A DNA stretch of 64,000 bases. Source: Enterococcus phage CUB-FS. The stretch lies in the sequence record PV646497.1; one strand, given 5' to 3'. Under the pieces are notes generated by a model. That model saw only the letters and a list, made by a program, of their open reading frames with translations, had not been told where the DNA came from and searched no databases. Position numbers and translations under genes: made by a program. Below are positions 57,906 to 58,997 of the stretch, in pieces. Position 1 is the stretch's first letter. Every line of letters starts with the position of its first letter.

Positions 57906-58997
57906 CTATACTAAGTTACCATATCCGTAGGTATTTGTTTGAGCTTGTTTAAACATGATACTCTTGATAGCTAAGTCGTTGTATTTTTCATCGTCTTCGT
58001 CATCAAGGTACACATCAACATTAACGTTCTTACCTAAAATATCGATTGTTTCATCTTTACCTACTTGTAAGTCTTTACTGTTAAATGATACATCAAAATA
58101 AATGTCATCTTCTTTTGTACGACTACCGAATGATACTCTATCTTCAAATAAATTTAAACTTCGAGAGTTAATTACAACAGGTTGTAGCCCACCTTCAAAT
58201 TGAATAGTAACTGTATAATACTGATTTTCAATATTAAGAATGTTCAAATCAGCAATAGCTTCACCAAATGAGATGCCAAAGCTTAATTCCAACGCAATTG
58301 CTCGTAAGCAATCATAGTTTAACTTAATTCTACGGCTAAACTTAACAACACTGTCAATTTCCCCATAGTAAGCTTTGTCTAACTTATCTTGCAAGTAAGT
58401 ACGAATTTCGTCTGCATCAGGGTAGTCGAAACGTAAATGTTAATGGAAACGTCCCGGACGATTAAGCATAAAGTCGTTTACACGATTTAAGTTATTAACA
58501 GTAAGTGCATAAATACGCTTGCGTTGTGATAACCCATCGAATAAGCTCAATAGTTTTTCTTGTGATTCACGACCGTCACGGTCATTGAATACTTTTTCAA
58601 ATTCATCGAACAAGATAAGAGACTCTTGGTCAATACTGTCAATAAATTCTGCGATACCCGGATAAGCTTCTGTAATTAAGATAACAGGCATACCCTCTTC
58701 AATAGCTCGTTGAGATAAGATTTTAGTAAATAGTGATTTACCAATCCCTTTATCCCCACTTAAAATAACCCCTAAACTACGATTGATTGTTTTAAATGTG
58801 TGTAGTACTTTCTCAATTTTAACTAAACGGTCACCATAAACTTTAGATTCTTTCAATTTAAAATCGTCTGTAACCGCCAATGAGAACCCAGACATTGGGT
58901 TGAATCTAACTTTATAAGTTTGCGCAGGCAACTTATCATAAGTTTTCAGGTCGTTTGCATAAATCTCATAATTACTACCATAATTGATTACTTTCAT
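57906..58997 (-). pseudogene. AAA+ ATPase gene interrupted by a single in-frame TAA
   Basis: ORFs 58440..58997 (Walker A GDKGIGKS, Walker B ILFDEFEK, ...NRPGRFH*) and 57906..58439 share one frame (...H*HLRFDYPDADEI...); removing the 18 nt between the ACGTTTC direct repeats restores RPGRFDYPD. Confidence 0.55.

Follow-up and report, generated by a model that had tools for sequence, protein, structure and literature searches.

The AAA+ ATPase gene of Enterococcus phage CUB-FS is interrupted at codon 186 by an in-frame ochre codon, which is probably a private and very recent null allele produced by ordinary point substitution, with no recoding involved. The sequence studied was a 64,000-nt stretch of the phage genome (PV646497.1), called the window below, and all positions follow its numbering. 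As judged by sequence comparison, the gene is the orthologue of phiEF24C ORF215 and EF1TV_67. The stop is a real difference between CUB-FS and all the relatives compared.

On the minus strand, positions 58460..58419 read CGT CCG GGA CGT TTC CAT TAA CAT TTA CGT TTC GAC TAC CCT, and translation of the joined frame gave 363 codons with one internal stop. The first-pass annotation of this DNA had described an in-frame TAA (PGRFH-stop-HLRFD) in a minus-strand gene, two ORFs in one frame and 7-bp direct repeats on both sides of the stop. All three were confirmed, with the stop at 58442..58440 and both ACGTTTC copies located at a spacing of 18 nt. The 5' frame encodes an N-terminal beta domain, the Walker A motif GDKGIGKS, the Walker B motif LILFDEFE and the RPGR arginines. 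The region 3' of the TAA encodes the remainder of the last core strand, a helical lid (residues 195-251) and a C-terminal beta domain (residues 260-351). The coordinates are collected in the table.

Table. Features of the CUB-FS window discussed in the text (window numbering).
Feature	Position	Strand	Remarks
AAA+ ATPase gene, whole	57906..58997	-	363 codons + TAG; broken at codon 186 (from translation)
5' open frame	58440..58997	-	185 codons, ends at premature TAA
Premature ochre TAA, codon 186	58440..58442	-	Tyr codon (TAC or TAT) in relatives
ACGTTTC copy 1	58446..58452	-	Arg-Phe codons of RPGRF (R183-F184)
ACGTTTC copy 2	58428..58434	-	Arg-Phe codons of HLRF (R189-F190)
Codons 187-363 + TAG stop	57906..58439	-	3' of premature stop
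Second private change	58724 (CDS nt 274)	-	C>A, Q92K, just after Walker A
Type-II tRNA-like element, anticodon GTA	59035..59116	-	about 40 nt upstream of ATPase start
ARAGORN 'tRNA-???'	59954..60050	-	97 nt, four-base anticodon (ttcc)
nrdF (ribonucleotide reductase beta-subunit), interrupted	52073..54100	-	5' part 54100..53513, 3' part 52402..52073

What, then, is the lesion? We compared CUB-FS with the orthologues of eight phages, EF1TV, phiEF24C, EA1, EFGrNG, PBEF129, KEN11, A155 and vB_EfaH_149. In all eight the ATPase is annotated as a single CDS of exactly 1092 nt, which equals the two CUB-FS ORFs joined, and all eight intact genes keep both ACGTTTC copies together with the intervening 11 nt. 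Codon 186 is TAC in seven of the relatives, TAT in the remaining one and TAA in CUB-FS. Because the orthologues are of the same length, keep both repeats and carry TAC or TAT at codon 186, the lesion is a single C>A transversion at CDS nt 558. On the plus strand this is G>T at 58440, where the four relatives compared have G and CUB-FS has T. The alignment indicates that the stop arose by point substitution of the Tyr186 codon TAC and not by insertion. A recent 18-bp insertion, as had been proposed for this site, is contradicted by the common length of the orthologues and by their two repeats with the 11 nt between. Of the idea of a pseudogene made by such an insertion, the recent breakage of the gene stands, and the cause assigned to it gives way to a point lesion. 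The comparison with related phages, suggested by the first-pass annotation as a check, returned a single intact CDS in the relatives and no shared split. The intact orthologues, among them phiEF24C ORF215 (gp215, YP_001504324.1), resemble CUB-FS in a locus downstream of a tRNA cluster, in the 1092-nt length and in 98-99% nucleotide identity; they differ in having TAC rather than TAA at codon 186 and Q rather than K at residue 92.

Against the eight relatives, only two changes in the ATPase gene are private to CUB-FS, Q92K and Y186stop, and none lies 3' of the premature stop. Residue 92 is Q in 110 and K in 3 of the best 120 of 4,321 homologues, and Q92 and Y186 are both present in all 15 members listed for the 98% cluster. 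With Tyr restored, the CUB-FS protein is the same as its closest allele, P0121, apart from Q92K. P0121 is the commonest allele (ECP3, EF1TV, PBEF129; AZU99911.1) and was found on 32 contigs. Since there are only two private changes, none of them past the stop, and the protein is otherwise P0121, the gene has not decayed, and the stop is therefore either very young or not real. Both private changes are non-synonymous, and both fall in the minority C>A/G>T class of private SNPs. Two artefacts could account for this, as could a relaxation of constraint once the gene was inactivated or selection acting on the phage to lose the protein; the sample is too small to choose among them.

The rarity of the allele was assessed at several levels. 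A 1.3-kb region around the site matched 63 phage records at 90-99% identity, of which 62 are named Enterococcus phage; the closest matches belong to the phiEF24C group (Kochikohdavirus, Herelleviridae). No record identical to CUB-FS was among the 63, and the premature stop occurred in none of them. For the ATPase gene itself the best matches were PBEF129, vB_EfaH_149, KEN11 and EF1TV. We also searched with a 41-mer centred on the variant base, for which megablast seeding is possible only with the A present. The TAA version had no match in 50,697 phage records, and the TAC version, used as the control, was found in 47 of them. A TAA 27-mer was absent from IMG/VR, metagenome contigs and genome contigs, and a database search found no record of the exact 185-aa product. 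Across these collections the stop is private to CUB-FS. A literature search for this ATPase or for nonsense alleles in phiEF24C-like phages found nothing relevant.

To place it in a family, the joined protein was given back its Tyr at codon 186 and scored against Pfam and phrog profiles. The Pfam AAA profile (PF00004) matched residues 77-191 on profile positions 1-130 of 131 with 35.1 bits, against a curated cut-off of 21.2. The phrog_2376 'ATPase' profile matched over its full length (E 1.7e-120; residues 1-359 on profile positions 1-361 of 363). The score above the cut-off, GDKGIGKS, LILFDEFE and the NRPGRF of the second region of homology all mark a classical AAA ATPase. A protein search (5.8 billion) yielded 4,321 matches with E <= 1e-20, and the best 120 of these are all single chains of 351-372 aa. 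Within these 120, R180, G182, R183, H185, Y186 and H187 are invariant (120/120), F184, R189, F190, Y192 and P193 are near-invariant, and no indel falls within residues 180-196. Homologues at 30-50% identity occur in Bacillus, Lactococcus, Lactobacillus, Corynebacterium, Staphylococcus and E. coli phages, and they keep the contiguous HYH-containing motif. The supposed 18-nt insert thus encodes the most conserved segment of the family, R-x-G-R-F-H-Y-H.

The fold was taken from the AlphaFold model of a 98% identical protein, P0001 (mean pLDDT 82). In this model the ATPase domain has its last core strand, a beta strand, at residues 184-189, and after it come the helical lid and then the C-terminal beta domain. 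The nearest folds found by Foldseek were Bcs1, Mpa, p97 and Afg2/Drg1, with E around 1e-9. The segment matches the Pfam AAA profile without gaps, and its alignment to a solved AAA structure is gapless too, pairing lnRPGRFhyhlrfdyPDade with lrRPGRFdqeveigiPDvda of Afg2 (Afg2 segment RPGRFDQEVEIGIPD), and the spacing from RPGRF to PD is eight residues in canonical AAA proteins and in the phage protein. The region had first been read as AAA sensor 2. We take the RPGR arginines, following standard AAA nomenclature, to be arginine fingers, which stand where the second region of homology ends, and not sensor 2; the segment is this arginine-finger end followed by the last core strand. It had also been claimed that deleting 18 nt restores a canonical AAA sequence. 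That product, RPGRF-DY-PD, is wrong because it keeps two residues where canonical AAA proteins have eight between RPGRF and PD, and the deletion would also remove a core strand. The phage ATPase shares Walker A, Walker B, RPGRF, the eight residues and PD with the classical-clade AAA proteins (Afg2/Drg1, p97/Cdc48, Bcs1, Mpa/PAN). In contrast with them, its AAA module is single and is flanked by N- and C-terminal beta domains that are phage-specific, and its family signature is RxGRFHYH, as against RPGRFD in the classical clade.

What would the stop do to the protein? On the favoured reading, one private substitution has converted the invariant Tyr186 codon TAC to ochre TAA, and the frame across the conserved domain is interrupted by this codon inside core strand 184-189. 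Translation would end at codon 185. The predicted product would keep Walker A, Walker B and the RPGR arginines but would lose the lid, the C-terminal domain and the greater part of the last core beta strand. Because the last core strand is mostly missing and the lid and C-terminal domain are lost, the truncated protein is expected neither to fold nor to assemble as an active ring. As such a product would be inactive, the CUB-FS isolate would be a natural or laboratory-arisen ATPase null mutant, and the phage would have been able to do without the gene under its conditions of propagation. Set against the null allele, all 63 related records have the gene intact and several phage genera conserve it, which might make its loss costly, and a consensus sequence alone cannot vouch for a base call.

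The main rival reading is that the TAA stems from an error in sequencing or in the consensus, the phage itself having TAC and an intact ATPase gene. We regard this as possible, though not as the expected outcome. An error would account for an allele that is unique among all collections searched, in a protein whose remainder is identical to the commonest allele except for Q92K. The two private changes in the gene are each C>A, or G>T on the plus strand, and this class is rare among the private SNPs (10/106), which speaks for an error and could hint at an artefact where a null allele is assumed. The G>T class is typical of oxidative-damage artefacts. However, substitution errors are uncommon in a high-coverage consensus, the site is not a homopolymer, there is no other mid-gene stop in about 100 genes, and the SNP spectrum is dominated by transitions. 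The last two points come from a quality check in which annotated EF1TV CDSs were mapped onto the window, where about 100 had a counterpart, and from the private SNPs at 40-64 kb against four relatives. The ATPase was the only one of the roughly 100 counterparts with a mid-gene stop; other differences from the EF1TV CDSs were few and consisted of indels or stop shifts at gene 3' ends. Of the 106 private SNPs, 92 were transitions and 10 were of the C>A/G>T class, and no general oxidative-damage signature was present among them. A generally error-prone assembly was not supported, given the single mid-gene stop in about 100 genes and the transition-rich SNPs. The 3'-end differences concerned four genes, at 34449..34804, 48616..48843, 3342..4365 and 16393..17235. 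The first two show a 1-nt gap each, the third a 19-nt insertion and the fourth the loss of its stop codon; they look like ordinary C-terminal variation.

Could a real stop be leaky, so that some longer product is made? Two routes come into view. A near-cognate tRNA-Tyr might read UAA, which would restore the wild-type protein, or peptidyl-tRNA-His might hop from CAU(185) over UAA to CAU(187), giving a product minus two residues, ...RPGRFHLRFDYPD.... The sequence CAT TAA CAT does place matched codons on both sides of the stop, as in synthetic E. coli stop-hops (PMC5009743). In the latter, which the review takes from Weiss et al. 1987, a stop placed between two identical codons allowed low-level +6 hops, and according to the review no natural in-frame stop-hop is known (PMC5009743). 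CUB-FS shares the CAU-UAA-CAU arrangement with these constructs. Unlike them, which were engineered in E. coli, its arrangement is accidental, because CAT-TAC-CAT is ancestral in all relatives and nothing has evolved for hopping. The ATPase gene has a tRNA-Tyr-like gene about 40 nt upstream of it, but this element scores below threshold in both ARAGORN and Rfam. Moreover, no stimulatory RNA structure was found (z = -0.15), spontaneous UAA read-through is normally very low, and the hop product, without the invariant Y186 and one invariant His in the core strand, would probably be inactive. A leaky stop of this kind thus seems distinctly unlikely. Programmed stop-codon read-through, one of the suggestions in the first-pass annotation, found no support: the in-frame stop is not conserved, with no TAA allele in the 63 relatives, the 50,697 phage records or the contig collections, and no signal is present. 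We rate it as unlikely, too, that the TAA is real and that a measurable passage of ribosomes takes place, by His hop or Tyr misreading; if true, a His hop across CAU-UAA-CAU would be the first natural in-frame stop-hop, though an accidental one. On a related view, Q92K and Y186stop, two private non-synonymous hits in a single gene, would be the mark of selection for loss of the ATPase, for example as an escape from a host defence that senses it.

Programmed bypassing of the T4 gene 60 type, in which ribosomes would pass from one CGU-UUC site to the other and skip an 18-nt insert, had been proposed on the strength of the matched CGT TTC sites 18 nt apart with a stop between them. What gene 60 requires for bypassing is a take-off codon directly followed by a stop, a gap that is non-coding, a stem-loop at the take-off site and a signal in the nascent peptide (PMC7026636). 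The gene 60 gap is a non-coding mobile insert of 50 nt, and the stop follows the take-off codon GGA (PMC7026636). The likeness lies in repeated codons around a stop in a phage gene. In CUB-FS, unlike gene 60, the 'gap' is coding and conserved: every intact orthologue has it and translates it, and it encodes invariant residues. The stop is private to one genome and conserved in no relative, and there is no structure. When 121 nt around the stop were folded, the MFE was -19.4 kcal/mol (z = -0.15), 83 of 200 shuffles folded at least as well, and no take-off stem-loop was found. A stop just after the take-off site, as in gene 60, was also claimed; however, the codon after the proposed take-off UUC(184) is CAU, and a stop is directly 3' only of an alternative take-off at CAU(185). 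Both UUC...UUC and CAU...CAU are present as matched pairs, and both are ancestral coding codons, which makes the matches trivial. The product RPGRFDYPD would, in addition, lack a core strand found in all AAA proteins. Ribosomal hopping between the CGU-UUC sites is accordingly refuted by the comparison with relatives and is an extremely improbable account of the gene. The ACGTTTC repeat was rejected as a signal: it represents the Arg-Phe codons of two conserved motifs and is present in all intact orthologues. It is not above chance either, as 7-mers repeated within 7-30 nt occupy 473 positions in the window, and CGT is the commonest Arg codon in the ATPase gene (12/19).

Equally far-fetched is the view that an 18-bp insertion or duplication made the stop, or that CUB-FS has a functional ATPase split into two polypeptides. 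Two same-frame ORFs do exist, and direct repeats can flank insertions. But the gene is as long as every orthologue and shows no indel, none of the relatives has a split here, and the cut would, by the model, fall within a beta strand. The downstream part also has no start codon with a ribosome-binding site; the first in-frame start past the stop is TTG at codon 202, without a Shine-Dalgarno sequence. The split ATPase put forward earlier is, as a conserved arrangement, refuted by the stop being found in 0/63 related records and by the best 120 homologues being single chains.

The private null allele, as the favoured reading, amounts to an ordinary nonsense substitution of one base in a phage AAA+ ATPase gene that is widespread and already known, and it is nothing new biologically. 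The intact form is already in dozens of deposited phages, and the change carries little general biological weight. In annotation, the two ORFs belong together under a single disrupted ATPase gene, and neither a pair of genes nor a recoding site should be entered. If sequencing reads confirm the allele, CUB-FS would offer a natural knockout for asking about the role and dispensability of the phrog_2376 AAA+ ATPase.

Several neighbouring elements and other loci were recorded. The GTA element upstream of the gene is annotated as tRNA-Tyr in EF1TV, KEN11 and KEN16, and the CUB-FS copy is identical to that of EF1TV. ARAGORN did not call it, and its best Rfam score, to tRNA-Sec, was below gathering (29.9 bits vs 47). 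It is not a suppressor, because its anticodon is GTA. No suppressor tRNA was found in the 64-kb window, where the anticodons were cat, tgg, tag, tct, cca and gtc in addition to the GTA Tyr-like element. Stop reassignment was rejected within the window, as TAA is the commonest terminator and ends 47 of 91 intact genes. The ARAGORN 'tRNA-???' is probably either a spurious call or a degenerate tRNA: Rfam gave no match there with the threshold relaxed to E <= 1, and the interval between tRNA-Leu and tRNA-Arg of EF1TV is free of annotated tRNAs.

The nrdF gene of CUB-FS is interrupted in the same way as in KEN16 and vB_EfaH_149 and is uninterrupted in EF1TV and ECP3. Between its two parts lies a 209-aa ORF (53398..52769), in the place of an annotated HNH endonuclease of KEN16; a search of the interrupted gene for a group I intron gave no Rfam intron family at the gathering threshold. 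The nrdE gene is interrupted in KEN16 and ECP3 and intact in CUB-FS (56263..54113).

The only other split ATPase found was that of Staphylococcus phage S-CoN_Ph3, which is annotated as two CDSs with a frameshift at an A7 run (about 860-905 of L005), a site different from that of the CUB-FS stop. S-CoN_Ph5 gives the same two-piece match, and the A7 frameshift may be genuine or may come from missequencing of the homopolymer. In two distant phages the ATPase homologue adjoins RNA-related genes. An RtcB-like RNA ligase is directly upstream of it in Corynebacterium phage PSonyx (L009 1..1474), and a tRNA-Met is directly downstream in Lactococcus phage phiL47 (L007 401..1578). These neighbours echo the tRNA cluster beside the Enterococcus phage ATPase and may hint at its function.
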